Below, in pieces: positions 17,687 through 53,519 of a DNA stretch of 64,000 nucleotides. The stretch is taken from contig CAUYUJ010000107.1 of the NCBI GenBank assembly GCA_963575745.1, positions 1 to 64,000 on the forward strand, in the 5' to 3' direction. How positions within the stretch are numbered: the stretch's first letter is position 1; each line of letters begins with the position of its first letter. A model generated the notes under the pieces. That model worked only from the letters and a program-made list of their open reading frames with translations, made no database searches and had not been told where the DNA came from. The position numbers were made by a program, and so were the translations under genes. The stretch is from Prorocentrum cordatum (Eukaryota).

Positions 17687-17942
17687 ATGCCAGTCGTGGA
17701 CTTACGTGAGGTTCACGCGCCCTTGCCTCGAGCGGTGCGAGAATTGCAAGGGGTGCTGATGGAAACTATGTCTACGGCCGGAGATGGCGCGTGCGCTATC
17801 CATTCCGTGTGGGGCGAGTGGGCGTGGGGTGAGCTGTTCAAGCGCGACGCTCGGTCGTTTCTCCGCGACGCATTCGGTCCCACTGCTGAAATATTCAAAT
17901 CGAGGCTGTCTTCCGAGGGGCTGCTGGGCGATATGGAATGGG
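17687..17942 (+). pseudogene. 5' part (N-terminal half of an OTU-like protease domain) of the Helitron-like Rep-helicase gene
   Basis: METMSTAGDGACAIHSVWG is an OTU catalytic-Cys motif (GDGxC). The coding sense ends exactly at the TSD, and the frame resumes at 42047. Confidence 0.75.
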
Positions 17943-18027
17943 TGGGGACGTCGCAAAGTGTCCAAATCTGTGTGGCCGCCGCTTGTGTTCAGACCAGGGG
18001 GTTGGGGGTGGAAACGACCAAAAATGA
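17943..18027 (+). repeat. Left terminal inverted repeat
   Basis: TGGGGACGTCGCAAAGTG...CTGTGTGGCCGCCGCTTGTGTTCAG...GGAAACGACCAAAAATGA, reverse-complementary to 41953-42037. Confidence 0.92.
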
Positions 18028-19545
18028 CTGCTGGAACCGCTGGTGCCAGCGGGCTGGAAATCGCAGGAAACACATAGGACCATCAACGAAATCGAACGAA
18101 AACGAATCAAAAGAGGAGGAGGAGGAGGGGGGGGACGAGGAGGAGGAGGAGGAGGAGGACGAGGGCGAGGAGGAGGAGGATGAGGATCAGGAGGAGGAGG
18201 AAGAGGAGGAGGAGGATCAGGAGGAGGAGGAGGAGGAGGAGGAGGACAAGGGAGGAGGAGGAGGAGGAGGAGAACGAGGAGGAGGAGGAGGAGGAGAGGA
18301 GGAAGAGAACGGCGGCTGCAGCAGCAGGCGGCAGGAGGGGAGCTTGCACGAGGTGAGAGGCGAGAGTGGTCACGTGCTGGGATGTACAATCCATTCCATA
18401 CCACAAGGAACGCATCATATGGAACGAATGTGATTATCTGCTTCTCTGGCCACGACGGGCCTAGGGGCCTAGGCCGCCACGAACTGGTCCCACTATATAA
18501 ATGTAAAGAATGGTCCGAAAACCAGACCCAGCCCGAAGCAGTCCTTAGGTCAGCGTCTTGACTGACTGATCAAGTCGAGGCCGCCGCCGCCGAGGGCCGT
18601 CGAGCCGAAGCCGATCGACCGCGCCGCCGGCCGGCCGACATCCTCCTCCTCCTCCTCCTCCTCCTCCTCAGCCTATTCCTCCTCAACAGTTCCACCTCCT
18701 CCTCCTCCTCCTCAGTCCTCCTCCTCCTCCTCCTCCTCCTCCTCCTCATCCCCCCTACTCCTGCTACGTTTCCTCCATCTACTTCCCCTACCTCCTCATG
18801 CAAAATATCATCCTCCTTCCCCTCCTGATCGTTCTCCTCCTCCTCCTCCTTCTCCTCCTCCTCCTCCTCCTCCTCCTCCTCTTCCTCCCTCCTCCTCCCC
18901 TCCTCCTCCCCCCCCCCCACTCGCCGCCCATGGCGGCGGCGGCGGCCGCGGCGGCGGCAGCGGGGGCCAGGAGCTCCGCGCCCTGTCTGCACCCTTCCTC
19001 CATCTTCCTCCGGGGCGCCTTTATCTTTATTGTGTCCTCCTATCGTGCCGGGTGCCGCAGGGGCCGGTCACGAGTCACGAGGGGCAGTCCAGTCCACTCC
19101 CACGAACGGAACAGCCCACGAGCTACTACGTAGTTACTACGACTACGACTACTACCTACACGAATGCCTGTCACACAGCAGGCGCGCAGCACGGTCGGCA
19201 AGCCGACCTGTAGACACCCACAGTAGCCGCGTCGTTGCCTGGAAACATCAGGCCCCTGCCGCACATTAGAGGCGGTCGCGCAAAATACAAAATCAAAACG
19301 AAGCAAATAATTCTCCAGCCTCGCCCTGGGCTGAGAGAGAACAGCTGCTGCTACGGGCGCTGGGCAATTGCTCGCAGACGGCCGAACGCCATCCCGAACC
19401 TTGCCACGCCGCGGGCCGCGACGAGGTCAGCCGGGCTAGTCGGGGAGGCCGGGGAGGAGGAGGGGGGGCATGATTTTCACATTGGTGGTTTTCTGTTTTC
19501 TTCTTGGAGCCCTTGGAGGTTGAGAAGAGGAAAACCGAGCAACAC

Positions 19546-22500
19546 CTAGGACAAGATGTGCTTCGATGTGTGTTTCGAGGTCGTCGTCTTCGCCACTTTT
19601 GCCGGCTGCTCCTGGCGGAGAGACGCCTCGTGCGGAAATTCTGGCCTGGTCATCTCAACTAGCTTGACTCCTCCAGGGGCCTCGGCCAGCTCGTGCACAC
19701 TCAGGGCGTCGCCCCTAGGAAACGCCGGATCGATCGTGAACGTCGGGACCCCGATGTCGAGGGTCGTGCCGTCGTGGGAGACCGTAACCCGAGTGGCGCC
19801 CTGACGCAGCACTGCCGGCAACGACGGCGGCTCCTGGTCGCCTTTCTTGGTCTTCCTCCGGCGCTCCTGGGGTCGGGGCAGTACGCAGTCAAGCAGCATA
19901 GTGAGGATGCGCGGCAAGGATGCAAGGGCCTTGGAGGGCTGGGAGGGCCACGTCATCAACGTTTGTTCGAACCAGGTTTGCCAGCGAGAATTTCGAGACA
20001 CGGGTGCAAGGGTAGCCGTGACAAGTGGCGCATCCTTACTATGCGGGCTGACTGTATCTCTCTTCCCCTCCGGCCCCGCCCTCCCTCCCAGCTCAACCTC
20101 CTGACCTTGTCAGCCCTGGGGAGTCCTGAGGGGGCGGGGATAAGGGCCCCGTCGCACCGCTGCGTTGCCTCCAAGGCGGGCGGAGGCGAAGAGAGATACG
20201 CAAAAACGGGCAGGAGGACAGGGGGGGGAGGGGGAAGCGGAGAAGGAAGAGGAGGAGGAGGAGGAGGAGGAGGAGGAGGAGGAGGAGGAGGAGGAGGAGA
20301 AGGGCCCCCAAGAACAACCTCGAAGTTTTTCTTCATCTTACCTTAGGAGGAGGAGAAGGAGGAGGAGGAAGACGAGGAGGAGGAGGGTAGGGCAGAGCAT
20401 GAGGCAGGAGGGAGAGAGGAGCCGGCGTCCACGGCGCCGATCCGCAGTCCTGACCAGTGACCAGGACCTTCGCGTTCCAGGCCGGGGCGAAGGTGGCGGA
20501 GTCGGCGTTGACCATGCCTCGGGCCAGAGGGCAGCGAGAAGGATGCATCGAAAAACGATGGGGAGAGGGGGGGGAGAGGGGAGGAGGGGGTGGTGGCAAG
20601 CTAGGTGCGCTCGCGTCATATCTGACGTCCTACCCGGGAGTCCTACCCCTCCCTCCGGAGCTCCCCTCCCATGTGGAGAAGGGGGGGGAGGAGTTGGAGT
20701 TGGATTTGGAGTTGGAGGTGGAATCACACGGCTGAATCCGACCAACGTTGGCACTGATACGACCCCAAACCTAGCAACTTACATCTCACAGGACGCGACG
20801 GGAAGGTGGGATGAGGGTGAGAAGATGATGATGAGGATGAGGAGAGTCGGAGAAGGAGTGAGATGAGGATTAGGAGTAGAGAGAGGCACGCCTGTGGTCG
20901 GAGAAATGCTGACGTAGAACTTCGTGCCCATCAGCATCACGTCGCCCACGGGAACAGCAGCCCTCGGAAGCTCGCTCGTCGGGCTGATGAGGACCCTGCC
21001 AATCATGTGGCACGCGAAGTGCGCGGCATCAGGGTGGTTGACGTCGATGAAGAGCCTGAACTTGCCAGTGCCCGCAACGGGCTTCCTGAACCACAAGCAC
21101 CGGCCCGCGCGGTCGACGCACGAGTCGTGGGTCGGGGCGCCGTTCCCGTCGTAGGTCACGATGTCCCCGAGCATCTTCGCGGACGCCTTGGCCGCCAACG
21201 TCTGCGCGAGCCAAGCGGCCTTGGAGGGCCTCTGCACGTAGGAGGTCCACGGCGAGTTTGCTTCAGCGGCCGCCGCCGCCTTAGCACTCTCAACCTCCTT
21301 GTCGATGACGGTAGCTGACTCCGGCGTAGGGCATAGCGCGAGCTTGACCGCATCAGTGGTGTCAGCGATCCTCTTGGCGACCATGGCCTTGGCGATCGTG
21401 GAGCTGTCGCTTGCCTCCTCTAGCTTGAGCTCCAGGGCCGCGGCCTTCTTGTCCGGCGTAGCCATCGTGTCGACCATGCTCTTGCACGTCTCGGCGTCTG
21501 CGGAGTCGCGGGCGTTGATGGACTTGGCCTGGCCGATGACGCTTGCCCACAGCACCGACCACTTCACGCCGTCATGGGCTGCTGCGTCAGCTGCGCTGAC
21601 CTCGGGCTCCCATGCTTTGACGAACTCGGATGCCGCCCTGCACCGGGCCGCAACCTCGGCAGCCTTGCCGTTGGCCCCAAAGACGTCCTCATCGTCGTCC
21701 GCCATGTACGCCTGCACTACGGCGTCGACCTCATCCAGCAAGATGCACATGTATTGCGTCCTCAGCGCCGCGAACTCAGCAGCGGCAGTACTGGATGGGA
21801 AAAGGTTGCCCGCGTCCTTCATGCACTGCGGCGTGATTGAAGGTGCGCAGTCGGCGGCGGCCTGGTAACAGCAGCGCGCGACTGTGACGAAAGACGGCTC
21901 GATGGCCGAGCTGATAGCCGGGAGAAGTGCGCAATCCATGATGACGTGCAGCGCCTCCGTAGTCCCAGAGCTCTTCTGGAAGATGTCTGCTAACTTCTGA
22001 GGGCACAGAGAGCTCCACAAAGCGGAGATGGCCGACACCAGCTGCGGGTGGGTCCTGCGCATGACGGCGTGCTTGAGCCCTATCTGAACAGAGCTGGAAA
22101 ACAATTTGCACCGCTGCAGTAGCTTGGGGTCGGCCTTGACCATGCGGGATATCACATCGGTTGGCGCCCCCCCCTCCTTCGCGGCAACTGATAGGGCGGC
22201 AGCCTCCGCCTCGACGGTCTGGCCTGTCAAGTCGGGGTCATCATCCGCCTCCTCGGTGTTAGGGACGATGACGTCGAAGTGATCGTTCACAAGCTTCGCC
22301 TTGATGTAGCAGCGGACAGATAACCAGCTGGTCAACTTCAGATATTTGGCCGGCGATGATGGTGGCGGTGCCGGGGTGCCGGGCTCCCTCTGCTTGGGCA
22401 CTGTGATCTTGCCCGAGGCCGCGAAGCATACCACGAAGTTCTTGGCGTCCTCGATGCTGCTATCCTTCGCCTTGCCATCTGGAACGCGAGCCATGATGCA

Positions 22501-25312
22501 GTCGATCGCGTTCGTGGCGTCGTCGAGGAAGAGCGCCGGGCGGGCCTTGCCGTTCTTGCCCGTCTGGACCTCATGAATGTCACTGGCCCCAGATGCAAGG
22601 GCCTTAGCTGCAGCCGCCTTAGCCTTGGCCTCTGCTCGTTTACCCTTCTTCCCCTTGGCGGTGGTGGGCTTGGCGGGCTTGGCGACGAGGGCGTTCGACA
22701 TCGGCTGCGGCTTCGGCTGGCGGCTCAACTGGAAGACTTTGCTCTCCTGCATCTGCTGGAGAAAGTTCGAGACTGATTTCAGCGAGGCCTTCGACTTGAA
22801 GTGCCACGGGGAGCCCTCGTTGGAAGGCACCACCAAACGAAGAACCTCTTCGGAAGGCAGGGCAATGATGTAAAGACAAAACTGAGAGTAAGGATGCAGG
22901 ATGAGGATGCAAGCCCATTGGACGCCAATGCCGAAGCTTGTCATGTTGTCAAGCGGGGCTGGCAATCGAAATGGGCTGGTTGAGAATAGACCGAAGATGA
23001 CAGAAGATGCAAGGATGCAAAAAGACCCCCTGGGCCAAGGGCCCCTTGGGAAGTCGCCCATCCTTCCTATCAGCCTATCAGCGCAGGAGGAGGAGACGAC
23101 GGGGAAGACGGGGATGAGGAGGGGGGAGGAGGAGGAGGAGGAGGAGGAGCAGGAGCAGGAGGAGGAGGAGGAGGAGCAGGAGGAGGAGGAGGAGGAGGAG
23201 GGGGGTGCGACGGAGTCGGGGTCGGGGCCGGGCTGCTTTCCCAGGGAAGGATGAGACCCGGTTCAGCCACTCGGTGCGAAGGTCTGGGTACTTCTTAAAC
23301 TTAGTCATGATATCCTTATTGCACAGCATCACCGTGGAGCGGTCCAGCGATGTATCAGAGAATCGGCAATGCTTGCCGCACCACGCCACGTACTCATCAT
23401 ACAGACCGAACTTGACCATCGCGCGGTAGAATATCTTACAGTTGAGGAACTCGTTATAGCTCTTGAACATGCCAGGGTGGTGCGAGGTCAAGTAGTCATG
23501 ATAGTGGTCAGCGTACTTCTTACTCTTCTTGTCCTGGGGCACACGAAAACAAACCTCACATCATCACATCGGCACGAGGGGTGGGGATGGGGCGGTGTCG
23601 CCCCAAGCTTGTGCGCCAGCGGCGCTCCCCCCCCATCCGAAATCTGGCCCCCCCCCATTCGTTGGGCCGCTGTTGGGCGGGCGTTGGCGGGTGGAGGAGC
23701 GAAGGGCGATGTCCGCGGCATCGGGGAGGGCTCGCTTCGTGAACCATCGCAGGTTGAAAGTTGAAAATCTGGCTTCGAAAGGACTGCGCGAAGCATTACA
23801 TGGCACATATAGCATATCTAGTATGAGGCTAGGTCAAAGCACCATCATGGAACCATGTATATGCAATATGTAACATGTAATGCTTACCCGAAACACCTGT
23901 GCAACATCGAACTACGCGTGCCGTCTGCGCTGCGCAGACGGACGCAACGTTCAGATAACACTTGAAGGGCGGGGTGGTAGGGTGGTAGGGGAGCTCGTTC
24001 CTCGGCGGGCCCCTCGTCCGCGTCCGCCCCGTCCAGCTCCGCAGCGCCTCCCTCGGGCTGCGCGGCTTCGGCGTTCCCCTCAGCCTCCTCAGCCTCCTCC
24101 TCATCCTCGTCATCTCCTCCGTGCTTGCCCCTCGCAGTGATATTGTTATCCCTGCAGTACTTGGCCCATCCCTGCTCGACCAGCGGCACCGAGTTGTATG
24201 CCTCAATGAAGCTCGTCGCGGCCCCCACCTGGTTGTACTTATTGTTCAGATCCTGCGGGCCAGGCTCGCTCTCTCAGTTACCCACCCCCCTGTTCCCCCT
24301 CCCCTCCGGGCGGTGGCAAGCAAGGGGGGCAGGGGCGCCCAAGGGCAGGGCTGGGGATCGGACCTCCGGCGCGGGAATATATGGCGGGACGGGTGGGGGG
24401 GAAAGAACACCAGACACATAGACAGCGACAGTCCTTCAAATAGCGCAGCACGTCCGGTGGAGTGCGCCTGTCGAGGAACGACACGTTGCTGATGCCCTCC
24501 TTGATGGTAGCAATGACCTGGGGGTTGTTCCTCTCAGCCTGGGGGGAGGTCGCCCACTTCTCCTTCTCCTCCTCCTCCTCGTCCTCCTCCTTCTCCTCAT
24601 CCTCCTCCTCCGCCTCCTCATCCTCCCCCTCAGCCTCCTCGTCCTCCTCCTCCTTCTCCTCCTCCTCCTCCTCCTCTCCTCCTCCTCCCCCCTCCTCTTT
24701 CTCTTCCTCTACGGCCTCTCTCTTCCTCCCCCTTTTCCATCTTCCCATCCTTCCCTTCCTGCTCCTCCTGCTGCTGCTGCTCCTCCTCCTCCTCCTCCTC
24801 CTCAGCTCCTCGTCGTCGTCGTCCTCCTCCTCCCTCCTCCTCCTCCTCCTCCTCCTCCTCCTCCTCCTCCTCCTCCTCCCTCCCCCTCCTTGGATAGCCT
24901 CTGCTGCCATGTACAGCGCTTCCATACGGGTCGCATATGACATGAGCTCGTACTGGTTCGACCCGCGTGGACCAACTGGCACGGCGAGGCACTCCCAGCC
25001 ACATCCGAAAGCCAACCCTTCCTCGAGGATCGAGTTCATGTATTGCACAGCCGTGTCTTCGTGGTGCCTGTTGTTCTCTGGGTGCCGGCGGAGGAGCTTC
25101 TCGCCCTGCTCGTTGAAGAAGTTAATCTTCCCCATCTCTTCCTCGACGTACACGTCCCTCAGCATGCGCTGCAACATCACCCCCTTCACGCCTGGGAACC
25201 TCTCAGCGACAGTGAGCACAGACCTGTCCCATGGATGGGTGGCGGGGGCGCCGGAGCTGGCGCCGGAGCCAGCGGCGCTGGCCTGGGTGTCATCGGAAGA
25301 ACCTAGAGACAT
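19546..25312 (-). CDS. Large multi-exon protein of unknown function with a ParB/Srx-like N-terminal domain
   Basis: Approximate exons: 25312-24900, 24538-24430, 24252-24000, 23533-23258, 23063-20890, 20522-20445, 19836-19546, separated by (GAG)n-rich introns. The N-terminal QYMNSILEEG...CLAVPVG...QYELMSYATRMEAL resembles the ParB pattern SIxxxG...i.v...YeliaGxrRlxA. Confidence 0.55.
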
Positions 25313-26749: not shown

Positions 26750-27550
26750 TCATTGGGTCATGATCCGCAAGGCGCTGGCGAACCTCGACTGCTTAGAGGG
26801 CTGGAGCTGCGCATCCGTTGACGGCTGCAACGGGCGCTTCGTCGTCGATTCCGCCTGGGCGGTGCTGGCGGCCGTGACCTTGACGTCGAGCTTGATCGAC
26901 ATTGCAGCTGCAGCCTGGGCCTCGCCGCTGCCGCCAGTGGGGCCGTCGAACTGGCCGTCGGAGGTGCTGCTGCCGCGCGCAGTCGCGCTCGCCGTCGCCT
27001 CTGCCGTCACCTGGACGTGCACGGAGGCGGTGGCGGCGGCCGGAGCAGCTGGACCGACGCCGGAGGATTCCCCGTCGGGGCCGGGCCTGGGGCCGCGCGC
27101 CAGGGGCAGCGTGGTGGTCGAGAGCTCCGACCCCGCGGCGCTCACCAGATCATCTGGCGCGGGCCTCGGCAGCGCTGGCTCCGCCACTGCGCGGGGCGCA
27201 GGGCGCAGGGGCACCGGGGCAGGGCGTGCGTCGACGGGGGGACGAACTGGCCACGGCTCGTCGCCGACGTCGCCATCTGTCCGAAGATTCCGACCGACCC
27301 TGCCCAAGTCATCGAAGATGAGGAACACCGTCCCGAGGCAGGCGCCGGCAACGCAGACGTGGTACGCGTTCCCCATCTGGTTGACGTGGGACCGGCGGGT
27401 CCTGTAGGCCCCGCGTGACCACCGTGACAACTACCAGAATTCATCACCCCTCCCTCCTGACTCGTCTCGCCTCCTCCGACCCTCCCCTCGCCGACCCGGC
27501 CCCCATGCCCTTCCCCCCTCCTCGAAGCAGCTTCCTTAAAATTATCATCC

Positions 27551-27583
<33 letters not shown>

Positions 27584-28646
27584 GTATCACCATCATCATC
27601 ATCATCATCATCATCATCAGCATCATCATCATCACCATCACCATCACTCGATCATCATTATCCTCTTCCTTATCCTCATCATCATTATCAGCGTCACCGT
27701 CACCATCGTCATCATCATCGCCAGCATTATCATCGCCATCATCTACATCATCACCATCATCGTCATCATCGCCATCATCATCACAACCATCATCGTCATC
27801 ACCAGCGTCGTCGCCGCCGCCTCGGGGAGGTGGGCTGGCTCGCAGAGTTTCGACCCAGCTCCGACTGGCAGGCGGCTCTGCGCCGCGGGCGAACTGGGAT
27901 GGCGCCCCGGCCGCCAGGATCGTCTCGGGCGTGCACGGGTACCCCATCGCGATGGACATCTCGAGCGGGGTCATGAAGCGCTGGCGCTTCGACTCGAGCA
28001 GGTGCCCAGTGCCCCTGGTGATCGTGTGAAGGTACTGGCCCTTCGACATCACCACGCGGTGGGCGGGGTCCTGATTGACGTCGTAGAGAAAGTTGCTGTC
28101 CGGCCGACCGAGCTCCTCCCGGCGCTCCTCGTAGTTGATCGCGCGCATCAGCTCCTTGGCGCTGATGGCGTCGTAGGGCCTGGCGCACGGGTCGAGGACG
28201 CTGCTCGAGGCCGCCTCGGCGGGGACGACGCGGGACGCAACTGACGGTCTGGCCTTGGCCAAGGCGTACTCCGCGTCAATCTCCTCGTCGGTCGAGACGA
28301 AGAACACCCCGAAGTCGCACGTGGGGACACGGTGCCACAACTGCTCGAGCACGCACTTGAAATTGCCAAAATCAACGTCGTACGCGCCCTGCCGGCGCAT
28401 CGGGCGCGGGATGCGCTTCGAGTCCAAGTATGGATACAGCCACTCCTTGAGAAAGAGAACGCAGATGCTCCGGGCACGCGACGCTGGGAAGCCGAACTGC
28501 GTAGGGCAGCACGGCACCCGCGTGATCACGTACATATCCCCGAGACACTCAACCAACTCGTCGGGCTTGAAGCCTTTGACGTTCTCGCGCAGGATGACGC
28601 GATCCTCAGGCGCGGGGGGGGGGGACAAATGCATGCAATCCTCCAG

Positions 28647-28679
<33 letters not shown>

Positions 28680-28788
28680 ATCATCATCAACATCATCATC
28701 ATCATCATCATCATCATCTGCATCAGCATCACCATCACCATCAGCATCAACATCATGTCGTCGCCGCGTTGATCCCCATCGCCGTCGC

Positions 28789-28832
<44 letters not shown>

Positions 28833-29752
28833 GCAGCAGCACCATCATCATCCCCATCATCAGCAGCATAAACAACATTCTGCCCTGGTCCCTCCGTTGC
28901 CTGGCTCCTCCTCCTCCGCCTCCCCCTCCTCATCGGTGTTCTCCTCCTCCTCCTCCGCCTCCTCCTCCTCCTCCTCCCCCGTCCTCATCGTTCTCCTTCG
29001 GTCGTCACTACGTGCACCCCCTTTTCCCGGGGGTCCTTGACCGTGCGCCTCTGGGCACACCAAGCCCAGAACAACTTCGCCCTCTTGCCCTGCATGCGCA
29101 ACAACTTGCCGAACACAGCATGGTCCTGGCAGGGGCTACCGGCCGAGTGAATGTCAGCGGCATGCTGGACGGTGCAACGCTTCTTCTGCACCTTGCACAA
29201 GCCGAAGACGGACGCCTTGCTGTACGGCAAGACCTTGCGCAACTCATCAGGGCTGAGCTCGTCGGCAGCGTTATACACGCCGACGTCCTTCCACAGATCC
29301 CGGTTCACGAAGTCCAGAATGTCCCCGAAGATGCAGGCGGGCGCGGCGGCTCCCAGCGCCGCGAGCTCCACCTGGCACTTGGTGTCCCACTCGATCGCGT
29401 ACATGTGCACAGTCTCGAGCGGATGGCGATCATCCACGATGCCGGCAGTGGCCTTCAGCTCGGACACGACGCTGCGGGCGCTGTTGGTGAAGGACGCCGC
29501 CGCGATGATATCAGTACCAACGCCCGAAAAGGCCGAGGACATGGTCACGCTCCTGCCGTGGAGAGCCTCGATGAAATCCATAAGCGGCACCGCCTCAGCA
29601 TCGCATATCTTCTGCAGCCCGTCCTTGGCCCAACTGAAAGCATCACTGATGGTGCGAGTCGAACCAGTGCCGGCCTGCGTCAGCTTACTGATGGAGATGC
29701 GAGGGTTAAGGCGACACGGTGGCATGCTGCCACGCAGCGTGCTCTGGGACAT
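26750..29752 (-). CDS. C5-cytosine DNA methyltransferase, 3 exons (~29752-29037, ~28604-27870, ~27404-26750)
   Basis: Ordered Dcm/DNMT motifs: I SAFSGVG, II YAIEWD, III IFGDI, IV AGSPCQD (catalytic PC), VI ILRENVKGF, VIII TQFGFPASRAR, IX RFMTPLEMSIAMGYP, X QMGNAY. The introns are (GAG)n/(GAT)n-rich. Confidence 0.9.
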
Positions 29753-30300: not shown

Positions 30301-31609
30301 CGCAGAGTCGCACAGACATGCATCATCCACTGATTTCTGAGAATTTGCATGTCTAAATCAACCCTAAATCACACCAAAACCGCATGCTGGCAAATGAGTT
30401 AGCACGCACAGGAATGCCTGATACTCTCCACAAGCTAAATATAATTAACAACATCAACGCACGTGCTCGTGGTCATCGTGAGACTGGCGCAACTCCCGAG
30501 GCCCTGCGCTGTTAAATATCACGCCGGCTGCGGTCATATATGCACCCTGTTGTTGGTGACAGTCTGGCTTATTTGCAATGCAATGTTGTCCGGCGGTGTC
30601 CACATGCCCGCAAATTATATCCAAGACAGGGGCTGTTCGAGTAGCGTAGCAGGTTACCTACTTGTTTTTTCCCCACATCCTATGTCGCTCGAACTCGCCG
30701 CCTGGTGGCGTCTAAGGTTACCTACTTGGTGCGATGCACGACTGAACTGTGATGTCCACGTGGTGTCCCACTGGAATCGCTAAGGGCAGCTTTCGGGTGG
30801 GTGGTTTGACGTCTCGAACTATGAGTCGCACCCCCCTCTCACCCTTATCCTCCTTGTCAGCCTCCTCTGCCTCAGTTCCCCCCTCCCCCCCCTCCGCTCG
30901 ACTCCGCCAGGCCCCCGGGCGGCGGCGGCGGCCCTCTGGCAGCAGCCTCGGCGCCCAGGCGCTGCAGTGGGGGGGGGAGTGACGAAGAGAAGGGGGAGGG
31001 GCAGAGGAGGGGGGTGATGGTGATGGTGATGATGATGCTGCTGATGATGATGATGGCGCGCGTGTCTTTCCCACATAACATTGTCCAGAGCATGGGGGCG
31101 AAGAAAGGCCGATGGCGAAGGGGTGCGAATGCACCCTCAAACGCATCACCCCCCGGCCTGCCAAGATGATGATGATGGCGATGCTGATGCAGATGCCGAT
31201 GGTGATGAGGATGGGGGATAGGGATAAAGAGAACGTTAATGATACTGCCGATGACGATGATGATGATGACGAGTTCAGGCAGTCGAAGCTACCCACCCCC
31301 AAGTTAAGGCTGCTCTGCAGTGGTAAGAGGAAGAGAAATATCGATGTGTTGTTTACACGTGCCACTTCAGGTTTTCTGCCGGCAAGGTTTCAGATAAAAC
31401 TTCCAAATCAACGAAGAGAAGAGAGGGGGAAGTTGGGGAAGAGGAGGAGTAGGAGGAGGAGGAAAGAAGGAGGAGGAAGAAGGAGGAAGGGTAGGAAGAG
31501 GAGGGGAGAGGATGCAGGAGGAGGGGCTGCATGCGGAATCCATCCGAGATGATTTCTCGGATCGGCGCTGGACCCCCCCTTCGACGCACCGTGCCCGTCA
31601 GGGCCCCCC

Positions 31610-34600
31610 TTCTGGGGCTTGCGCACCAGGCGCTGCCAGGTGGGCCTAGCGCCGACCCAAGAAATCAACGCGGCGGCCAAACTCTTCTCGACTGCGGTCG
31701 ATATGTCGGGGCTGTCGGGCAGGCGGGCGAGATGGCCAGTCCCGTGGTCTCGGCACGCAACGGCATTCGACTCGCTGAGGTGCTCATCGCCAGCTCGTTC
31801 CACCTTGTGCAACGCACCCTTCCCTCCTTGCCCGCCCCTCCCCACTATGACGGTGCAACTCGAAACAGAAAGTTGAAGGCTGAATTCGGGAATCGGGAAT
31901 TACTGACCCGCAGCGCCGTCGCGCCGTTCAAAGAGGCGCAACAGAGCACACTTGCACAAGCAGCACGCCATCTCGCATGGCTCCAGAACGCCCCGCAGCG
32001 CATCAATCGCAACAACGTTGGGCAGACTGGCAAGCGCGATAGCAACGTCAGCCTCCAGGCTGGCGATGAAGAGATCAAGAGCCTGATCTGGCAAAGAAGC
32101 CTCGACCGAGGGGCCCGAGGGGGGGGTCAGAGGTCCGCCGCAGACGCGGCAGACGTCGGGGCCAACGTGGTCCACCTCCCGCCCAGATAGACGTTCGAAA
32201 AGTTCCCTAAATGTAAGTGCGGTCTCTGGCATATCGTCCCTCAGGTGCCCCGCTCGCCTTGTCATTGTGGCGAGGGCGTTAGGCAAAATCACACGGGCCG
32301 CGCCGTGTGCAAATCGGTCAGCCAGGCTAACGCGCTGCCCTGGCTGTTTGTAAATGATGCCGTTTCTGTAATCTAAATCAATGAACCGCCCAGCGAACGC
32401 CAGGCTGTTATCCCAGAACAACCATCTAGTGTAAACTACCTTAAGGGTCTCGCCCGAATCGTCAATTTCAGCATCGTCTGTGAACTCAAGAAGTGCGATC
32501 ATTCTGTCCGTGCACGTGCAGAGCCGGCGCTGCATGTGCCCCTCTGTCTGCACCCCGCAGAGGTAGGCGATTGCACCCACGGGAACCCTCAAACGTTGAG
32601 CCCAATCCTTCAAGAATCCTGCCAGCAGACACGACAAACACCCCCCCCAACTAACTTGCCCCCTGTCATTGCCGGGACGGGGCAATACTCAGCTGGGTAA
32701 GCCTCCAGGCGCGGCGCAGCTGAATCTCGGGGCGGCCCGGCACCCCCTTTCTTCCCCAACGATTGCAATTGAGTTTGATTAGAGAGGACGCGCGAGAGGA
32801 CGCAGGGCCATGCTGCCCCAGGGGGTCGCAGAGGACACGTGATGTGAGGGCGCAAAACATTGGATTGGGTGCCCTTGATTTGGCAGGGTCGACCTTTCGC
32901 ATCAAACTCGATTGTACTATGTGACGTGCGAGCAGTCTTTCCCCCTTCAAATCCTTCGACGGCCGCGACGTCGTCGCCGTCGCCTCTGGCGGCCGCGCCA
33001 GAGGCGGCGCCGAGGTCCACGTGGGGCTCGAGACCGATCTCAATATTGTAGGCGATGTTCTGCAAGGCTTCGTGCGCCAGGTGAGCCGGAAATGTGTTCG
33101 TTGATATCTGGCCCGTGCCTGATGCATCGCCGTCATGGTCTGCCAACCACGAATCGATCGTCGCTCCTGCTGATGCCCCATCATCGTTCTGCTGCCCGAG
33201 TGCAACAGTACCCTGCTGAGCTTTCTTCATCTCAGCATCTATGATTGTCTCGAGCTCAGCGGCGAGACGAAGGTGCGCCGTCGTCTCCTCTCCTGTCTCC
33301 GCACCCTCCTCCTCGCCGCCGGCTCCAGGGTCGTCGAGGCTGCCACCATGTCCCATCATCTCGTGGAACGCTTTCTCCTCCTCGTCCTCGCCCTTGCCCT
33401 CCTCCTCCTCCTCCTCACCCTCGCCCTCGCCGTCCAGGCTCGCCGGCGGCGGCCCTGCCGCCGCCGTAGGCCCGGGCGCGGGGGGCGCCTTGCCGCTGCT
33501 GTGCTTTCTCTCGCCCTTGCTCGTCTTGAGCGGGCGCAGGCACCTGGCGGCGGGAAGTCGGCGAGGAGAGGATGGGCGCTGGAGGTCGTCGTCGTCGTCG
33601 TCGTTGTCGTCGTCGTCGCAGTCGTCGTTCGTAATCGTCGTCGTCCTAGTCGTCGTCGCAGGCCGACGGGCGATCCGACGATCCGACGACGGCGGGGAAA
33701 GACCCCCCTCCAGGCTCGACGTCGAACGCGACGGGGCCAGGAGGGCGACGGGGGGCAGGGACGAGGGTGGAAGGAGGAGGAGGAGGAGGGGGAGGAGGAG
33801 GAGGAGGGGGAGGAGGAGGAGGAGGAGGAGGAGGAGGAGGAGGAGGAGGAGGATGGGGAGGAGGACAGAACGCCACAGTCCGAGGATTCAGGTTCGCCCA
33901 GCGTCAAAACTGAGGAGGAAGAGAAGGGCAAGGAGGAGGAGGAGGAGGAGGAGGAGGAGCAGGAAAGGGAGGAAGGAGGAAGGCGGGGGGCTGGGGCACC
34001 TCTCAATGAGTTCGCCACTCAGCACCTCGACGCGGCTCGAGAAGTGGCACATGTCAGTTCTGTGCAGACACCAAGAGCCAATGCAGAGTACCAAAGGATG
34101 CATGACACCAGCTAACGGCCACATGATCTCGCCAATGAGTTTGACGAGGGGCTTCGGGTCCAGCAGGAATAACAGCCTGGCATAGTCTGCCGCGTCAGCG
34201 GTTGACATATCCACATCATCCTCCTCAGCGAGCACCTCAACTCGCACTCCCCACAAAGATGAACGGAAATAATGACTCACAATGAACCCGTTATCAGTGC
34301 CCACTTGCCAGAATACGAGTCGGCTCGAAGGTTCCAGACCGCGGCGAGGGATAGAAGCTGGAAGGTCACCACCACCAGGAAGATCAGCATCTCGTCTCTG
34401 AGCCTGCTTGGGACATACGCACCCTCATCCGCCTCCTCCTCCTCCTCCTCCTCCTCCTCCTCTCCTCCTCCTCCTCCTCCTCCTCCTCCTCCTCCTCCTC
34501 CTCCTCCTCCTCCATCCGCTCCCCCACTCCATCCTTTGTTCAGTCCTCCTCCTCATCGTTCTTCCCCCATCCTCCCCCCCCCCCTCACAGCGGAGGGAGG

Positions 34601-37600
34601 GGAGGGGGGGCTTGAACTGGGGCGATGGAGCGATGGCCTTGACCATGGCAAGGACCCTAGTCGCGAAGAGATCCGATGGCGACGGCCCCGGCGCACGCAG
34701 CTCCTGCCCCCGCTGCTCCGCCTGTAGGCCGGACATGCCGCCAGCGGCGGCGCTGGGCTGCTGCGCCAGCGGCAGCGGCGGCGCTGGGGCGGGCGGCGCA
34801 GGCCCGTCTGCCAAGGGCTCGGCCGGCACGACGTCGCCGACGCCCGTCGCCACGACCGTCGCCCACCGGGCGCCGTCGTCCATGTCCCGAACAGCCAATG
34901 CCTCTCGGACGCGACGACGACGACACCTCTCGCCTCCCTCCGTCGGGCCTCGTCCCCCCTCTCCACCTACCTCCTCCTCCTCCTCCCCCTCCTCCTCTTC
35001 CTTCTATGCATCCTCCTCCTCCTGATCCTTCTCCTCTTCCTCCTCAGGGACTCCTCCTCATTGCTCCTCCTCCTCCTGGGTCCTCCTCCTCCTCATCCTC
35101 CTCATCATCATCACCCTGCCCTTCCTCTTCATCCTCTGACCTCGGCATGGTTGCCGATGCACAGATCGAGGAATGCCCGCCGGGCGGAGGGCGATGCCGA
35201 CATACTGGAGCATCTCTTCTTGATAGTAATGCGAGAACTCATGAGCGGCAACTTGATGCTGGGGGCCAACTTGTATATGTGCTTGATGACGTTGTTGCAA
35301 CCTTCGATCTCCTGCGCGTCCGCAGCCCACGAGTGGGCGAGCTCTGTCAGGAAGGCGTGCAACTCCTGAGCGAGAGTCTGGGCCACGGCAGCGCCCTCCA
35401 GCTCAACCTTGAATGTGCGAGCCACTTTGAGCGTTGTTGGGCACGACCCCGGGAACGGCGCATCCGCGCCCTGACCCAGCATGCGCAGCGTGTCCTGGGT
35501 CGGGGCGCGGAGGCGCGGGAGGGGGGGGAGGGCGGGAAGAGAAAGCTAAGGCTAAGGACTGACTAAGGACATAAAAGAGGAGGGGGAGAGCGGGGGATGG
35601 ATCAAGGGTTGATCGACGTCCGACGGCCGCCCTCGCTTCCTGGGCAACTGCAGCTCGGCGCGGACATCGCACGTCGTGAGGCTGAGTTACCAGGAGGAGC
35701 ATTCTACATGGGAACTCTGAGATGTCATTCAGAATACGCCGTTGGAAGTCTGATCTTAATTCTAATGTCAGCTCAACAATCAGGGCAATGACATTCTCTT
35801 CGAGGGCGTCGCACTCCCCCTCGCACTTCTCGATTTCCGAACAAACAGGGCCCCATATAGTGCGGTAGGATGGCCTCTCCAGAAGCGTGTCCCATTCTGA
35901 TGCAATGCTGGCAGCCTTGCCCGACACGAGCTCCAACATTTTAGGTTGTCCTGGGGCCCGGCGCTCGCGATCATCAACTCGCATGTCAGTGCGGTCCACT
36001 TTCTGCATCCAACACGACAGATGGTTGAGCGGCCCTCTGGTCCGCCTAGCAATGAGCACGTGCGCCCAAAACACGCCGTCCCGAAGAGAAGACAGTGCGC
36101 TCGTAATCCACCGGCCATACCTAGAGGCCTCTTAGATGGGGTAGGAGGGTCCGAGTAGATAGAGTTGAAGGGTCGCGCCGCATCGCCAACGCATCGGCGA
36201 CGCATCGGCGATAGATCGGCTAGCGAACGCTGTCTCCGACTGTGTCCACATCGAGCCGCATCGTCGATGCATCGGCCCATCGGCGATGCGCCGCGATCCT
36301 CCGACCCCATCTGCTCGGGCCGCATCTGAGAGGCCTAGAGTACCTCTCCTGATAAGACTCTTTGGCGTCAGGGTCGTCCTCAAGCCCAGTGGCTCGCCGG
36401 CGCTTCGCCGCGCCCGCGGCCTTGGCCGTCGCCTCCTGCACGAGGATGTCCTCGAACACGCGGAGCAACTTGTCTGACCCGCGCTCCTCAAGGTAAGCCT
36501 GGCGCCGCCGAGAGGGGGCGGGCGCGATGGCGAGGGTGGAGTGGGCCGGCCGGGGGAAAGTGGGAGGACCGGGGCGAGAGGGAGGCGGGCAAGGAGGAGG
36601 AGGATGAGGAGGAGGAGAAGGAGGAGGAGGAGTTGGAGGAGGAGGAAGTGACCCTTTCCACCCCCCTCCCCTCCTCTGCCTCAACCTACCTCCGTCCGAG
36701 CTATCCTCCGACCACGGGCTGTCTGACCTCCTTCCGAAGAACGAGCGAATTTTCTGATGCTGCCGCGCGCCTCTGTCATTGATATGGAGCCCCAGCGTCC
36801 CCGGAGAGGCCGAGGGGGAAGACGACGAAGATTCGCCTTCGCGTCCTCAGTGGAAAACACGCTGCACCATCTGCTGTACACCCTGGCAGCCATGCCGGTG
36901 GACCGCCAAACGTTGATCAACGTGGCGAGGCGGCCATAATAGTTCGCTGACCAGTTCCTGTCGAGCCTCGCCAGTTGCAGCTGCGCGCCAGAGTGGCCCA
37001 TGTGATCGATGCAGAACTGATGGATATATAAAGTCGTGTCCATCGGCATGACCATGCGTGAAATGATCGTCCTCGAACCCTGCTGATCTGGACCTAGGGG
37101 GAGAAACGACAGTCCTCCTCCTCCTCCTCGACTCCTCCTCCGTCCTCCTCCTCCTCATCCTTTTCCTCCTCCTCCTCCTCCTCCTCCTCAACCTCCTCCT
37201 CCTCGTCCTCCTCCTCCCCCTCCTCCTCCACTCCTCCTCAACCTCCTCCTCCTCCGCCTCCTGCTCCTCCTCCCCCTCGTGTTCCTCCTCGTCCCCTCCT
37301 CCTCCTCCTCCTCCTCGTCCTCCTCCTCCTCATCTCTCGCCCTGCCCTTCCGTTCCTCCTCCTCCCTTCCTAGGCCGTTGACCCCCGCCTCCTGCGAAGC
37401 CACCGGCCCTGGCCCGAGGCGCCAGAGCGCTGGGCCGGCTGCCCCGGCCCCAAGGACACCCGGGGGCGCGGGCAGGGCAGGCGAGGAAGCGAGGAGGCAG
37501 AGTCTGAGGAGGAGGAGGAGGAGGAGGAAGTTTGTAGGTGCACGGCGTGCGAATTCAAACCCATCCCCGACCTTTGTCAGTAGTGAACAGAAACACTCGC

Positions 37601-40600
37601 AAATGACGCTGCAGCCCCTGGCAATAGTCAGGGTCGTCGTCCCACAACTTGAGGCCCGCGCACTTCAGCTGTTTCATGTACAAGACAACCTGCTCGCGGC
37701 CCGAGTGGCTGACGGCAACGAACTGCAAGTCTGGGTACACCGACTTGGATTCCCGGAGGTCGTCGTCGATGTCATGATCTAGCAATGCGCCAATGCGCTT
37801 TCATGCCGGCCCGAATGTGCCAACGCGCCCACCCCCGCACCTCCCCGGCAAAGGGGCCGAATGGTGCGTCCGCGCTCTGGCCGAGTGAAAGGAGGAGGAG
37901 GGTGAGGGAGAGGAGGGGGAGGAGGGGGAAGAGGGGAGGAGGAGGAGGAGGAGGAGGAGGAGGAGGAGGAGGAGGAGGAGGAGGAGGAGAAGGGTGAGGA
38001 GGAGGAGGACGAGGAGGAGGAGGAGGGAGAGGAAGGAAAGGGGAACGGAGGCAAGCACCGCGCAGGGTCGCCATTCCCCCCGCCGCACCGATGCCGCTAC
38101 TCCTCGGATCTCTCCCGGGGCGCGTTCTGCCTAGGATTTCGAAGTGACTCCAGTCGTGGCGAAGAGGGATCTCCAGGGCGAAATGCGATGCGGCATCGGA
38201 CGCGCGATAAAGTGAAAAGCGCAAGCCTGGCGCGTAGTACTTGCTGGCCGCCTCGAGCACGTGCGCCTTCATGCTCTGGACCGAGCTGGCATTGGTAGCA
38301 TCGCCTCTGACGTTGTGGATCTCCCACGAGAACGCATCGCCGGGTGTCTTCGCGAAGTTCCGGATGCGATCCTGCTGGCGCCGATGCCAGAGCCTGGACT
38401 CGCCGATGATGTTGTTGGCGAGGCACTTCTCCCAAGTAGTCACGGACCTCGGACGGAGGGGGGGTGGGTCGGGCGCGCCCTTCCTTCCCGCCCTTCGGGT
38501 GTTATGGTGGTTGCGTAATTGGGAACCTGGAACAGGGACAGGAGCGCGAATGTTCGGGGGGCCCGAGTGCAAACCGATGCGAGTACTTGAATTAGATCCA
38601 TCCCGATCGATGGTCGAAGGAGGAAGAGGAGGAGGCGAGGAGGAGGAGGAGGAGGAGGAGGAGGAGAAGGAGGAGGAGGAGGGGGAGGAGGAGCAGTGAG
38701 AAGAGGAGGATGAAGCAGAGCCCTTCCTCCTCCGTGCCGTTCCGTTCCGTGAGTCCGCCGACCCGATTATGATTCCCCCTCCTCCGCCTCCTCTTGCTCC
38801 TCCTCCTCCTCCTCCCTCCCCATCATCCTTCTCCTCCGCCACCCGCGCCACTCCTGCTGCAGTCGGCGATCGGCGTCGCGACTGGGCGCTGAGCGCTCGA
38901 CACGCGGCCGACTTTCGCATCCACGATCTGGGCCAGCGCGGTCGCCCCCACGTGGCCGAGGTTCCGCTTGATCGCCAGCGAATACCCGCCGACCAAACCT
39001 GGGGCGGAGGCGGCGGGGGCGGGGGGGGGAAGGAGGCGGGCGGGGGGGCGCCCGGGAGGAGGGGCGTGGGGGGGCTCTGGGGACAGGAGGACGTGAAGTT
39101 CACGCCGCGTCCTGACGCCCGCCCTCGCCCCCCCTCCTCGTCGCCCCTTCTGGGGCCCGCGTTGTGGCCCCGGTGAACTCACGTTCCACCGCTCGGACTC
39201 GGCCTTGCGCCGCTTCCCGTGCTTCGCGAACTCAAATTCTGCCAACTTCTGCTTTGCAAGTGCGAGTTCGTTCCTATACTCATCTGCTTTGGCTTTCCAG
39301 TAGTCACGGTTGCGGCGAACTCTCTTGATGGCCCGCGCCGCCACCACCGAAACATCCGGAGCCTCAACGATGGCCATCACTTCCTCATCCTCAGCCTGAG
39401 CCCCAGCTTCCTCATCCTCAGCAGCAGCCTCCTCCTCCTCCTCGCCGCCCTCGGCAGCAGCGCGCTCGGGGAGGGCCCCGGGGAAGGCGGGGCCGGCCGC
39501 GGGGGCTCGCAGTAGCCGCCGGCCACGAGACTCAAGCAGCGGCGCCACGACATTGTCGATGTAGGCGAAGGCGTCGGGGGCCACGTCCTAGGGCGGGCAG
39601 GCGGCGGCGGCAGGAAGGCTGAGGACAGGGGCTTACCAATCCAGGGATCGGATCGAGTCGAATTCGGCGTCGCCGATCGTGGATCGTTCAAGATCGCCGA
39701 CGCCAGGTGACCTGGAAGTGACCTGGTCGAGACAGGCTGACCCTCCTCCTCCTCCTCCTCCTCCTCCTCCTCCTCGTCATCATCCTCATCATCATCGTCG
39801 TCATCGTCATCATCATCATCTTCATCATCGCCATCATCATCATCAACCTCATCATCATCACCATCATCGTCACCATCGCCATGGTGATCATCGCCAGCAT
39901 CATCGTCATCAGAATCGTCATCGTCATCATCATCGTCATCATCATCACCGTCAGCATCACAATCATCGTCTTGATCATCACCCACTCCCTCCTCGTCCTC
40001 CGCCTCCTCCTCCTCCTCCTCCTCCTCCTCCTACTCCTACTCCTACTCCTACTCCTCCACCTCCTCTCATCCTTCTATCCTTCTCCTCGTCCTCCTTACC
40101 TCCTTCTCCTCCTCTCCTGCTCCTCCTCCTCTCGCGGGTCCACGCCCAGCTCCGCCGCGGCTCGCCGCAGGACGGCCAGGCCGAGGAAGCCGACGCCCGG
40201 CTCCAGGGCGGCCGCGGCGGCGACAGCCTGCCGGAAAAGACGGGCGGCGCGCGGGCCGCCCCCCCGGCGCGTCCCCGCGCCCCCCCTCCCCCTCCTCATC
40301 TCCTCCTCCGCAGTCTTCCTTCCTCCCCTCTCCTCCTCTCCTCATCCTCTTCCTCCTCCTCCGTACCTTTCAGCCGCCGCCTCCCTCCTCCTCCTCCTCC
40401 TCCTCCTCCTCCTCCTACTCCTTCTCTTCCTCTTCTTCAGCCACCTCCCCCCCCTCCTCTTCCTCCTACTCCTCCTCCTCCTCTCCCGCCTCCTCTGTTT
40501 CCTCCTCCTCCTCAGGACGCCTTCTCGTCCTCGCTTCCCCCTTCCTCCCCCCCTCGTGGCCAGCCCTCGCCCTCCTCCTCTTCTTCCTCCTCCTCCTCCT

Positions 40601-40865
40601 CCTCCTCCTCTTCCTCTTCCTCTTCCTCTTCCGTTCCTTTCCTTTCCTCCTCCTCCTCCTACTCATCCTCTCTTCTTCTTCCTCCTCTTCCTCAAAGGCA
40701 GGCCTTCCCGACGCGTCGGCCCAGAGCAGGCCCGCACTCGTCCTCGCCGGCGGAGGCGAGGAGCGAGCGCAAGCAACTGGCCACAGCAGCCCCGTTCAGA
40801 AACACGCACCGCCCGCCATGGACGTGGGCCCACGCGAGCACTGACCTGGTCACTAGACCTTCCAT
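31610..40865 (-). CDS. Intron-rich DDE transposase (Mutator/hAT-like RNase H fold with CxxH) with a long C-terminal extension; about 15 exons
   Basis: Spliced by eye: MEGLVTRSV (40865), GGYSLAIKRNLGH, HNVRGDATN (D1, ~38310), FLFTTDK|GPDQQG (D2, split by the 37570/37093 intron), HQFCIDH (CxxH), PLRGRWGS (RW), DAQEIEGCNNVIKH (E, ~35305). Downstream segments at 34910-34610, 34405-34000, 33540-32955 and 32620-31610 end in a Cys-rich CRVC...CCLC region. The 3' end, and whether those segments belong to this gene, are uncertain. Confidence 0.75.
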
Positions 40866-40869
40866 GCCC

Positions 40870-40887
40870 GAAGCCAAAATGGCTGCG
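40870..40887 (-). other. Relic dinoflagellate spliced-leader-like sequence immediately upstream of the transposase ATG
   Basis: The minus strand reads CGCAGCCATTTTGGCTTCGGGC-ATG, a 15/16 match to CGTAGCCATTTTGGCT of the DinoSL. Confidence 0.65.
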
Positions 40888-41952
40888 TGAACTGCGACGC
40901 CAGGACCAGGACCCAGATAAGGACGCAAGGCCGGGGCGAGAGGATGCAAGGCCCAAGCGTCGGCCCCCAGCACCTTCAAGAAGTGCCGAATAGACGAGGA
41001 TACAAGAGTGACCTCTGTAGACTGCTGCACCCCACCGCTGGATTCGACTGCGAAGGTTGAATCGGAAAAAGGGCGGGGGAAGGAGGGGGAGGTGGAGGAG
41101 CGGGGGAGGAGGTGGAAGAGGAGCAGAAGAAGTAGAAGAAGGAGACACGAAGGAAAAAACCCGAGGAGGGGAGGGAGAAGGATGAAGCAATCCTTGCCTA
41201 TCTGACTGACACGTGTCAGTCAGACTGACACGCGTCAGTCCTTTGAAGGGCCTCCTGAGGCCCTTTAAAGGAATTTACCGAAATATCCCAAGAATGCCCA
41301 AGACGAACAAAAACATAATCCGATATGAAATGTGATTGTTTTTGCTACACGTCGCATACAACAAAAACAACAAACTGTCTGAAACGCCACGCCTCGACCC
41401 CCCCAGAGCCTCCGAGGCTCTGGGCGGGTTCCAACAAAAACAACAACAAGAACAAACAAACACCAAAAAAAAGGCACACAAACAAAAATGAAAATACGCA
41501 ACGGCCCAGCGAAAACACGCAATTGTGGACATCTACGTCCCGCCCACGATCAAGTGTCGCAACGACCCTGTGGGACCTTGGGCTCTGATTGATGCATGCG
41601 CGGGCCGACGAAATACATTGTATCAACCTGTCAAGCTGATGCGTTGCGTCGTGCGCGGGCCAGCGTCAACGATGTGTCATGTGGTTTTCAGAATGTCCAG
41701 CTTGTGTGGCGTATGCGTGTAAGTTATAAATGAGCCATGCGCTGATCAGTCAAATTTACAATGTCATGATGCTCGATGTGCCCAACCCATTGGTTTTGCA
41801 TGGGTTCTGTAATTCCCATCTGGTCGAAACTGATGGTTGTTGATTGTTTTCAGCCCGCGCAGCTGATGCATTTCTATAGAATTCATACTGACAGGCGACG
41901 TGCACGTACCAAATTTGATGATTTCCTAGATTCCCGACGCCCTGGATCTGCA

Positions 41953-42037
41953 TCATTTTTAGTCGTTTCCACACCCAAACCCCTGGCCTGAACACAAACG
42001 GCGGCCACACAGGATCGGTCACTTTACCACCTCCCCA
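41953..42037 (-). repeat. Right terminal inverted repeat
   Basis: Reverse complement reads TGGGGAGGTGGTAAAGTG...CTGTGTGGCCGCCGTTTGTGTTCAG...GGAAACGACTAAAAATGA. Confidence 0.92.
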
Positions 42038-42046
42038 TGGAATGGG

Positions 42047-49152: not shown

Positions 49153-49159
49153 CCGAGGG

Positions 49160-50135: not shown

Positions 50136-50144
50136 ATACCCCCT

Positions 50145-53515: not shown

Positions 53516-53519
53516 GGGA

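Follow-up and report, generated by a model that had tools for sequence, protein, structure and literature searches.

A 24-kb insertion with inverted ends and a cytosine DNA methyltransferase gene in Prorocentrum cordatum, probably a cut-and-paste transposon

A 64,000-nucleotide stretch of the dinoflagellate Prorocentrum cordatum (assembly GCA_963575745.1, contig CAUYUJ010000107.1, positions 1 to 64,000; hereafter the window) contains at 17943-42037 an insertion of ~24.1 kb whose boundaries are terminal inverted repeats (TIRs) plus a target site duplication (TSD). Inside it lie three co-oriented multi-exon genes on the minus strand, which are a large gene referred to here as gene 1, a gene for a C5 cytosine DNA methyltransferase (DNMT) and a further gene, gene 3. 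The insertion is probably a cut-and-paste element in which gene 1 would provide the transposase, the DNMT would be a stable passenger and gene 3 an accessory. The anatomy of the element and the presence of the DNMT are solid, and a second locus found among public P. cordatum proteins is encouraging.

The boundaries of the element are defined by the following features.

17934-17942, no strand: left TSD copy, TGGAATGGG, identical to 42038-42046
17943-18027, plus strand: left TIR, 85 bp, matching the right end at 73/85, its core found twice in the window and never in shuffled sequence
41953-42037, minus strand: right TIR, 85 bp, inverted match to the left TIR
42038-42046, no strand: right TSD copy, TGGAATGGG, identical to the left copy

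An ungapped comparison of 17943-18027 with the reverse complement of 41953-42037 gives 73 identities in 85 positions, and the match fades further inward (75/100, then 82/140). With up to three mismatches allowed, a 33-nt core of the TIR is present at two places only in the 64-kb window, one at each end and in inverted orientation, and has 0 occurrences across 100 dinucleotide-preserving shuffles of the window. Both ends are directly abutted by the perfect 9-bp direct repeat, chance agreement of two given 9-mers being ~4e-6. Nine bp is the better reading of the TSD because a 10-bp repeat, obtained by adding the preceding A, breaks the symmetry of the ends. Both the imperfect TIRs of about 85 bp and the 9-bp flanking repeat had been proposed in an initial annotation of this DNA and are confirmed here. 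Such ends together with a perfect 9-bp duplication are the footprint of an integration by staggered cut, of the type carried out by DDE transposases. No convincing subterminal repeats were found at the element ends, and metagenome contigs searched with the TIR core gave 0 matches. In an index of sequencing runs, part of the stretch is present in 6 entries, the best DNA entry containing 0.49 of its words, and no RNA entry is listed.

The flanks offer a second view of the insertion. Excising 17943-42046 joins the upstream plus-strand open reading frame (ORF) 17423-17942 to the downstream DNA with the frame kept; a TGA follows two codons past the joint (42052-42054), after which a 1799-codon ORF (42055-47451) resumes in the same frame. 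The initial annotation had stated that the flanks rejoin in frame, and this stands insofar as one common frame runs through the joint, whereas the TGA splits what are two long ORFs. They belong to a chain of long plus-strand ORFs (4490-8554, 14347-17942 and 42055-49236) that is also broken by single in-frame stops, a TAG at 6236 and another at 47452. The target of the insertion thus resembles a decaying giant gene or very long ORF, probably itself repetitive DNA, or else an older repeat.

The coding signal inside the element, measured by a codon-usage score trained on the longest ORFs of the window, lies almost wholly on the minus strand. The three co-oriented, intron-rich genes named in the initial annotation are recovered by codon usage, by ORFs and by the mapping of exons of public proteins, which are cited below by P numbers. 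Their introns are made largely of trinucleotide repeats, and no stop interrupts any exon mapped in the window copy. A Pfam scan of all 202 stop-to-stop ORFs of at least 75 aa in 17.9-42.1 kb returned one weak DNA_methylase match and nothing else; in particular, these ORFs matched no reverse transcriptase (RVT), endonuclease or tyrosine recombinase family and no capsid, polymerase, packaging ATPase or integrase family. Six whole frames with X at stops matched 0 families, none of 10 ATG-to-stop ORFs was present in a protein collection by exact look-up, and no paralogy between the genes of the element was found within the window.

The middle gene is the DNMT gene, with the following exons and motifs.

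26753-29752, minus strand: C5 DNMT gene with three exons (29752-29036, 28604-27862, 27401-26753), placed by motifs, family matches and the junctions of P0034
29536-29510, minus strand: motif I, FxGxG
29140-29120, minus strand: motif IV, PCQ
28592-28569, minus strand: motif VI, ENV
28499-28470, minus strand: motif VIII, QxGxPxxRxR-like
27950-27930, minus strand: motif IX
27373-27356, minus strand: motif X, GNA

C5 methyltransferases are recognised by motifs with the consensus forms FxGxG, PCQ, ENV, QxGxPxxRxR-like and GNA/S. Motifs I, IV, VI, VIII, IX and X follow in canonical order from 29536 to 27356 on the minus strand. The S-adenosylmethionine-binding FxGxG, the PCQ with its catalytic Cys, ENV and the motif VIII RxR are all retained. 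The gene starts at ATG 29752, or at 29743 in the public model P0034 (CAK0899908.1, P. cordatum, 1517 aa), in which it is fused to gene 1. Compared with the DNMT exons of the window, P0034 reaches 98.3% for the first, 98.4% for the second and 93.9% for the third, where a misaligned junction depresses the figure, and it scores 28.9 bits against PF00145 (curated cut-off 22; E 1e-6; profile positions 58-292 of 324). Its comparison with sequences of the PDB listed eight entries at E<=1, all eight of them M.HhaI, and these matches are weak (E 0.3-0.8), with an alignment that is gapless from PCQ to ENV over the joint of exons 1 and 2. Exon 1 alone reaches 19.4 bits against Pfam DNA_methylase (E 8e-4), under the cut-off of 22, and also matches the DNA-methyltransferase families 363, 5999 and 116 of PHROGs (E 0.002-0.1), TIGR00675 of NCBIfam (E 0.0055) and five methyltransferase models of PADLOC; the matches in all four libraries are weak but consistent and fall on the region of motif IV. 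Among PDB sequences exon 1 found nothing relevant. For exon 2, a word-based search among longer proteins and a search of metagenome contigs both returned none, while its placement in a protein-language-model atlas, where 28 of the 30 nearest named clusters carry PF00145 (top score 0.94, recognition 2890), is a lead rather than proof.

With its motifs in order and P0034 above the PF00145 cut-off, the middle gene bears out the earlier call of a C5 methyltransferase and encodes a divergent, motif-complete member of this class. Its divergence is too great for assignment to Dnmt3 or another class with the tools used. As a side observation, both DNMT introns in the P0034 model (29035-28605 and 27861-27402) open with GA and close with AG followed by G, and consist largely of GAT/GAG-type trinucleotide repeats; by our own reading, a GT-AG alternative for each intron likewise preserves the frame. 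A GA start and an AG-then-G end are typical of dinoflagellate introns.

Upstream of the DNMT on the same strand lies gene 1, the candidate transposase. Its exon coordinates were derived by arithmetic and some exon ends are approximate.

31648-39587, minus strand: gene 1, large multi-exon candidate transposase gene, placed by codon usage, ORFs, P0032, P0033 and P0034
37677-37570, 37094-36768, ~36498-36421, ~35410-35141 and 34904-34635, minus strand: gene 1 exons in P0034
~34403-33996, 33545-33492, 33125-32949, 32619-~31909 and ~31827-31648, minus strand: the remaining gene 1 exons in P0034
~39587-39180, 38446-38114 and 37800-37678, minus strand: upstream exons of gene 1, placed by coding potential only
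37002-37779, minus strand: putative catalytic core of gene 1, D-x66-D-x28-CxxH, read by eye over one intron

Residues 1-849 of P0034 map at 98-100% to the ten exons from 37677 to 31648, and the protein continues from there straight into the DNMT exons. P0033 (CAK0788684.1, P. cordatum, 186 aa), to whose cluster P0034 belongs, covers three exons and agrees with the window at every residue inside them, with mismatches at splice boundaries only. P0032, a transcript-derived peptide of 235 aa, was found, like P0033, by a one-frame read-through search with X at stops and matches 33230-32643 at 98.5% over 196 residues. It leaves the window frame at ~32643 and goes on in another frame at 32632-32489, and P0034 splices differently from P0032 around 32650-32489; the frame switch could stem from alternative splicing, from an intron that was retained or from a copy with a frameshift.

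The assignment of gene 1 to the transposases draws on the putative catalytic core and on the ends of the element. The first D (37779-37777) ends a hydrophobic strand in the exon 37800-37570, the second D (in TTD, 37578-37576) lies 67 residues on and ends another hydrophobic strand, and a CxxH (CIDH, 37013-37002) follows 29 residues past the second D, beyond the next intron. In the sections available of Liu and Wessler (PMC5499845), a (C/D)xxH 15-45 residues past the second catalytic D is described as common to the transposases of Mutator-like elements (MULEs) and hAT elements, with TSDs of mostly 8 bp for hAT and 8-10 bp for MULEs, and excerpts of Dupeyron et al. (PMC6446971) give MULEs TSDs of 8-11 bp and long TIRs. 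A Mutator-like transposase is the best guess for gene 1 because of the 9-bp duplication, the 85-bp ends and the D-D-CxxH spacing taken together. As for hAT, the TSD is 9 and not 8 bp, the TIRs measure 85 bp and are not short, and no Dimer_Tnp_hAT match was obtained. Gene 1 would thus be a transposase on the Mutator/hAT side of the DDE group, most like those of MULEs.

Whether the DNMT belongs to the element as a family is addressed by a second locus. P0034 and P0030 (CAK0899909.1, P. cordatum, 877 aa), which correspond to gene 1 with the DNMT and to gene 3, carry consecutive accessions and come from the same 739,816-bp contig, and P0033 comes from a 118,160-bp contig. Judged by these predicted proteins, the public P. 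cordatum set holds at least two loci with gene 1. The second locus differs from the window by ~1-2% of residues and appears to keep the order gene 1 - DNMT - gene 3, adjacency being read from the accession numbers. Because the gene order is the same at the P0034/P0030 locus, at about 98-99.5% amino-acid identity, the DNMT is less likely to have entered a single copy by a secondary insertion. The initial annotation had proposed an autonomous family that carries a DNMT; the recurrence at a second P. cordatum locus speaks for the family, whereas its autonomy is something that we only infer, because no homology search identifies a transposase.

Gene 3 and gene 1 are matched by three transcript-derived peptides (P0001, P0031, P0032) and are therefore transcribed somewhere. 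A side observation concerns the origin of such data: P0001, P0031, P0032, P0015 and P0016 are transcriptome peptides filed under a prasinophyte green-alga label, and since they either share 98-100% identity with this locus of a dinoflagellate or are members of the gene 3 family, label and origin seem discordant.

Gene 3 is the last of the three genes in the direction of transcription.

19549-25246, minus strand: gene 3, encoding a member of a mostly helical conserved family, placed by matches of P0030, P0003, P0015 and P0021
~25246-24896, 24541-24431, 24255-23995, 23536-23255 and 22845-20782, minus strand: gene 3 exons, placed by protein similarity
19962-19549, minus strand: possible last exon of gene 3, placed by coding potential only

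P0030 maps to 24541-24431, 24255-23995, 23536-23255 and 22845-20893 at 95-99.5%, and the transcript-derived P0001, whose 90% cluster holds P0030, is identical at 150 of 150 residues to the 827-codon ORF 20782-23262. The upstream exon at ~25246-24896 is covered by full-length relatives at 22-30% identity; P0003, P0015 and P0021 match this first exon, and the full-length relatives include P0003 (1080 aa), P0015 (851 aa), P0024 and P0035, the latter two being distant paralogs on other P. cordatum contigs. Similarity did not support 19962-19549 as the last exon (E about 1), and a BED-type zinc finger suggested by a regular expression at 23560-23480 was discarded, as its CxxC falls outside the exon of the public model. 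When 1.84 billion representative sequences were searched exhaustively with HMMER, 29 relatives emerged at E<=1e-3, of which six reached E<=1e-10. Pfam recognised no family in 26 of 27 relatives, the exception being the plant protein P0011 with low-complexity matches; the 827-codon ORF had no match in Pfam, PHROGs, NCBIfam or PDB sequences, and viral contigs searched with this ORF and with P0006 contained no relative. A word-based search with the ORF among proteins of similar length also returned none; it bypassed the 877-aa P0030, whose cluster is represented by a peptide of only 150 aa.

An AlphaFold model of P0030 built from a 27-row alignment is mostly helical (mean predicted local distance difference test, pLDDT, 71.7; predicted template modelling score, pTM, 0.51). 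No PDB structure was matched by Foldseek at E<=0.001 (best E 0.35), and in a wide VIA structure search the top score, Z 7.1, fell on designed helical repeats and lies inside the stated noise of the tool for helical proteins. The upstream exon shows a ParB/Srx-like pattern by eye, and gene 3 had been labelled ParB-like on first inspection; no ParB model matched the window exon (E<=5) or the five gene 3 relatives among eight proteins scanned (E<=1), nor did PADLOC report one, and the label is therefore unsupported and at best tentative. The AlphaFold model of this exon (pLDDT 55.3, 4-row alignment) is too poor for a fold search. Gene 3 is a member of a conserved, mostly helical protein family with no assigned function. 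Relatives (P0002-P0029) are located on marine metagenome and transcriptome contigs of 1.2-27.5 kb, some of them as long uninterrupted ORFs, e.g., 1080 aa on a 3838-bp contig. The family is thus widespread, and probably also expressed, in nature.

Taken together, the preferred explanation is that of a 24-kb cut-and-paste element. The gene 1 protein would bind to both ends, cut the element out and insert it again by a DDE-type mechanism. The DNMT would be retained as a passenger of the family or as a fusion partner, possibly translated as a fusion with gene 1, and it would methylate nuclear DNA, with copies of the element or newly inserted DNA as its likeliest substrates, by analogy with the DNMT-bearing retrotransposons of Symbiodinium. 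Such methylation may damp expression of the element or mimic the heavily methylated host genome, and gene 3 would act as an accessory protein.

Several observations weigh against this explanation and must be set beside it. Mobility of the whole 24 kb as one unit hangs on one TSD, and the second locus may represent another haplotype instead of a product of transposition. Transposase families of Pfam, PHROGs, NCBIfam and PADLOC gave 0 matches for any exon (at E<=5), for the six read-through frames and for P0034 (at E<=1). The MULE and Transposase_mut models likewise matched neither the exons, which are short, nor P0034, which is without the 5' part, at these thresholds, and comparison of two gene 1 exons and of P0034 with PDB sequences, and of one gene 1 exon with the protein-language-model atlas, yielded nothing usable for gene 1. 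The DDE transposase named in the initial annotation is accordingly reduced to a motif spacing read by eye. This D...D...CxxH spacing comes with no chance estimate and is weak evidence, and its first D lies in an exon backed by coding potential only, outside every public model. As for the DNMT, exon 2 alone matches neither a hidden Markov model of Pfam, PHROGs, NCBIfam or PADLOC nor a sequence of the PDB, and expression and activity of the enzyme are putative. The fusion of gene 1 with the DNMT may be a gene-prediction artefact, because ATG 29752 permits a separate start.

Among the alternatives, a non-autonomous Pack-type cargo element, the ends of which are mobilised in trans by a transposase encoded elsewhere while its three genes, of captured or resident host origin, take no part in transposition, is rather unlikely. 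It would account for the lack of a transposase family match in any internal gene and for the gene 3 paralogs on other P. cordatum contigs (P0024, P0035), which perhaps represent a host gene family, and gene capture is known for Mutator-like elements, as stated in excerpts of PMC6431247. However, Pack-type elements usually carry pieces of genes. The three multi-exon genes found here are complete and without stops and occur in the same order at two loci, and the D-D-CxxH spacing in gene 1 also argues against a mere cargo.

A stronger version of the cut-and-paste explanation would be an active giant Mutator-like family in which a transposase-DNMT fusion targets the ends of its own element or new insertion sites, methylates its own DNA and, by way of its copies, adds to the unusual methylation landscape found in dinoflagellates. 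This version is doubtful.

An endogenised virus-like or self-integrating element, such as a polinton-like element or a giant-virus-derived island that brought a viral methyltransferase, is highly improbable. The 24-kb size, the inverted ends and the bacterial/viral-style single-domain C5 methyltransferase would fit such an origin, and a C5-methyltransferase transposon is known from a phycodnavirus according to the available portion of PMC3627910. In contrast, no capsid, polymerase, packaging ATPase or integrase family was matched by ORFs of at least 75 aa, the genes have host-type introns, the viral contigs scanned contain no gene 3 relative, and the 9-bp duplication differs in length from that of polintons. 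That the structure is not mobile at all, its inverted repeat having arisen by chance or recombination or the whole being a segmental duplication or an artefact of assembly, is hardly credible, since, even though a single copy was inspected with its ends and the region is rich in low-complexity repeats, the 85-bp inverted match and the exact 9-bp repeat sit precisely at the outer edges, a single frame within a chain of long ORFs runs across the rejoined flanks and the gene order is the same at the second locus.

The remainder of the window shows features of its own. When 33 flank ORFs were scanned, the only relevant matches were weak P-loop helicase ones in 4490-6235 (AAA_30, 26.8 bits; DEAD, 24.1 bits; first ~60 profile positions). 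None of these 33 ORFs matched Helitron_like_N (Rep) or PIF1 models, and the Helitron label initially given to the flank is thus unsupported. The region 53500-64000 comprises large diverged tandem or satellite arrays that match themselves on either strand over 2-4 kb at 68-79%. Its GC content is ~0.50 and its CpG observed/expected ratio 0.56, far below the rest of the window. Duplications at 80-97% relate 2373-3942 to 8763-10356, 50144-51869 to 51868-53522 and 1-645 to 900-1590; none of these local segmental or tandem duplications around the element includes its unique sequence. The CpG ratio of the element itself (17943-42037) is 0.85, compared with 1.14 in the left and 1.08 in the right flank. 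The lower ratio could reflect methylation-driven decay or merely the repeat-rich introns, the difference being small and confounded by repeats.

Transposons are the usual targets of cytosine methylation, and the elements documented so far as carrying a writer of this mark are retrotransposons of dinoflagellates and charophytes and one small Mariner of a giant virus. If the present explanation is true, the acquisition of DNMTs extends to DNA transposons and to a second dinoflagellate lineage, possibly with fusion to the transposase. The element would provide a testable system for asking whether a transposon DNMT serves self-silencing, camouflage or host methylation, and how very large cargo-bearing transposons stay mobile. 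It also draws attention to two orphan protein families, gene 1 and gene 3, the latter being represented in metagenomes and transcriptomes of marine origin.

The full-text literature searches turned up no TIR transposon of a nuclear genome that carries a DNMT; outside their scope lie Repbase/Dfam and the supplements of the P. cordatum genome paper, where the family may already be catalogued. This agrees with the initial statement that no such element has been described, save for a small phycodnavirus Mariner with a C5 methyltransferase that is reported in the consulted part of PMC3627910. With MULEs, as portrayed in the available sections of PMC6446971 and PMC5499845, the element shares a TSD within 8-11 bp, TIRs in the range of tens to hundreds of bp and the frequent presence of additional ORFs, and, according to the latter source, a (C/D)xxH 15-45 residues past the second D (here 28 residues lie between, by eye). 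It differs in that no MULE/MuDR transposase model was matched, and it is several-fold larger than the arthropod MULEs of 1.4-10 kb given in a portion of PMC13359780. The text of PMC6446971 has 0 occurrences of "dinoflagellate" or "Alveolat".

Large size and extra genes have a parallel in the enlarged En/Spm (CACTA) elements of the red alga Chondrus crispus, which measure 16-20 kb and have 4-5 ORFs; they differ in their 2-3 bp duplications, and a methyltransferase is unmentioned in the excerpts of PMC6431247. The fungal TET/JBP transposons (KDZ, Plavaka, hAT7, IS3EU, PHISTA) resemble the element in combining TIRs and TSDs with an enzyme of cytosine methylation, often together with a third protein of undefined function, but they remove 5-methylcytosine rather than deposit it, reside in fungal hosts and have TSDs of 2-8 bp, as far as the sections available of PMC12730594 show.

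Closer in enzyme content is Mariner-1_OLpv of the Organic Lake phycodnavirus, a cut-and-paste element with a C5 methyltransferase beside its transposase (Bao and Jurka, 2013; PMC3627910, in part). It is small, resides in a viral genome and encodes, besides its Mariner transposase, an EcoRII-like endonuclease and a methylase of 344 aa recognised at E 9e-72, whereas the P. cordatum element is nuclear, 24 kb long and flanked by a 9-bp TSD, with spliced genes, no endonuclease match and a very divergent methylase.

The closest parallel in host and enzyme is provided by the retrotransposons SymbioLINE-Dnmt and SymbioDIRS-Dnmt3 of Symbiodinium, for which the sections at hand of de Mendoza et al. (2018; PMC5890265) describe element-borne enzymes with demonstrated de novo CG methylation and a proposed self-methylation. 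These elements are multi-copy and transcribed, and their intronless ORFs include a reverse transcriptase with an endonuclease or a tyrosine recombinase; unlike them, the P. cordatum element has no reverse transcriptase match and possesses inverted ends, a 9-bp TSD and spliced genes. In both cases a C5 DNMT with conserved catalytic residues is part of the coding content of a dinoflagellate element, and because of this analogy with the Symbiodinium enzymes the likeliest role of the P. cordatum DNMT would be methylation of the element itself or of new insertions.

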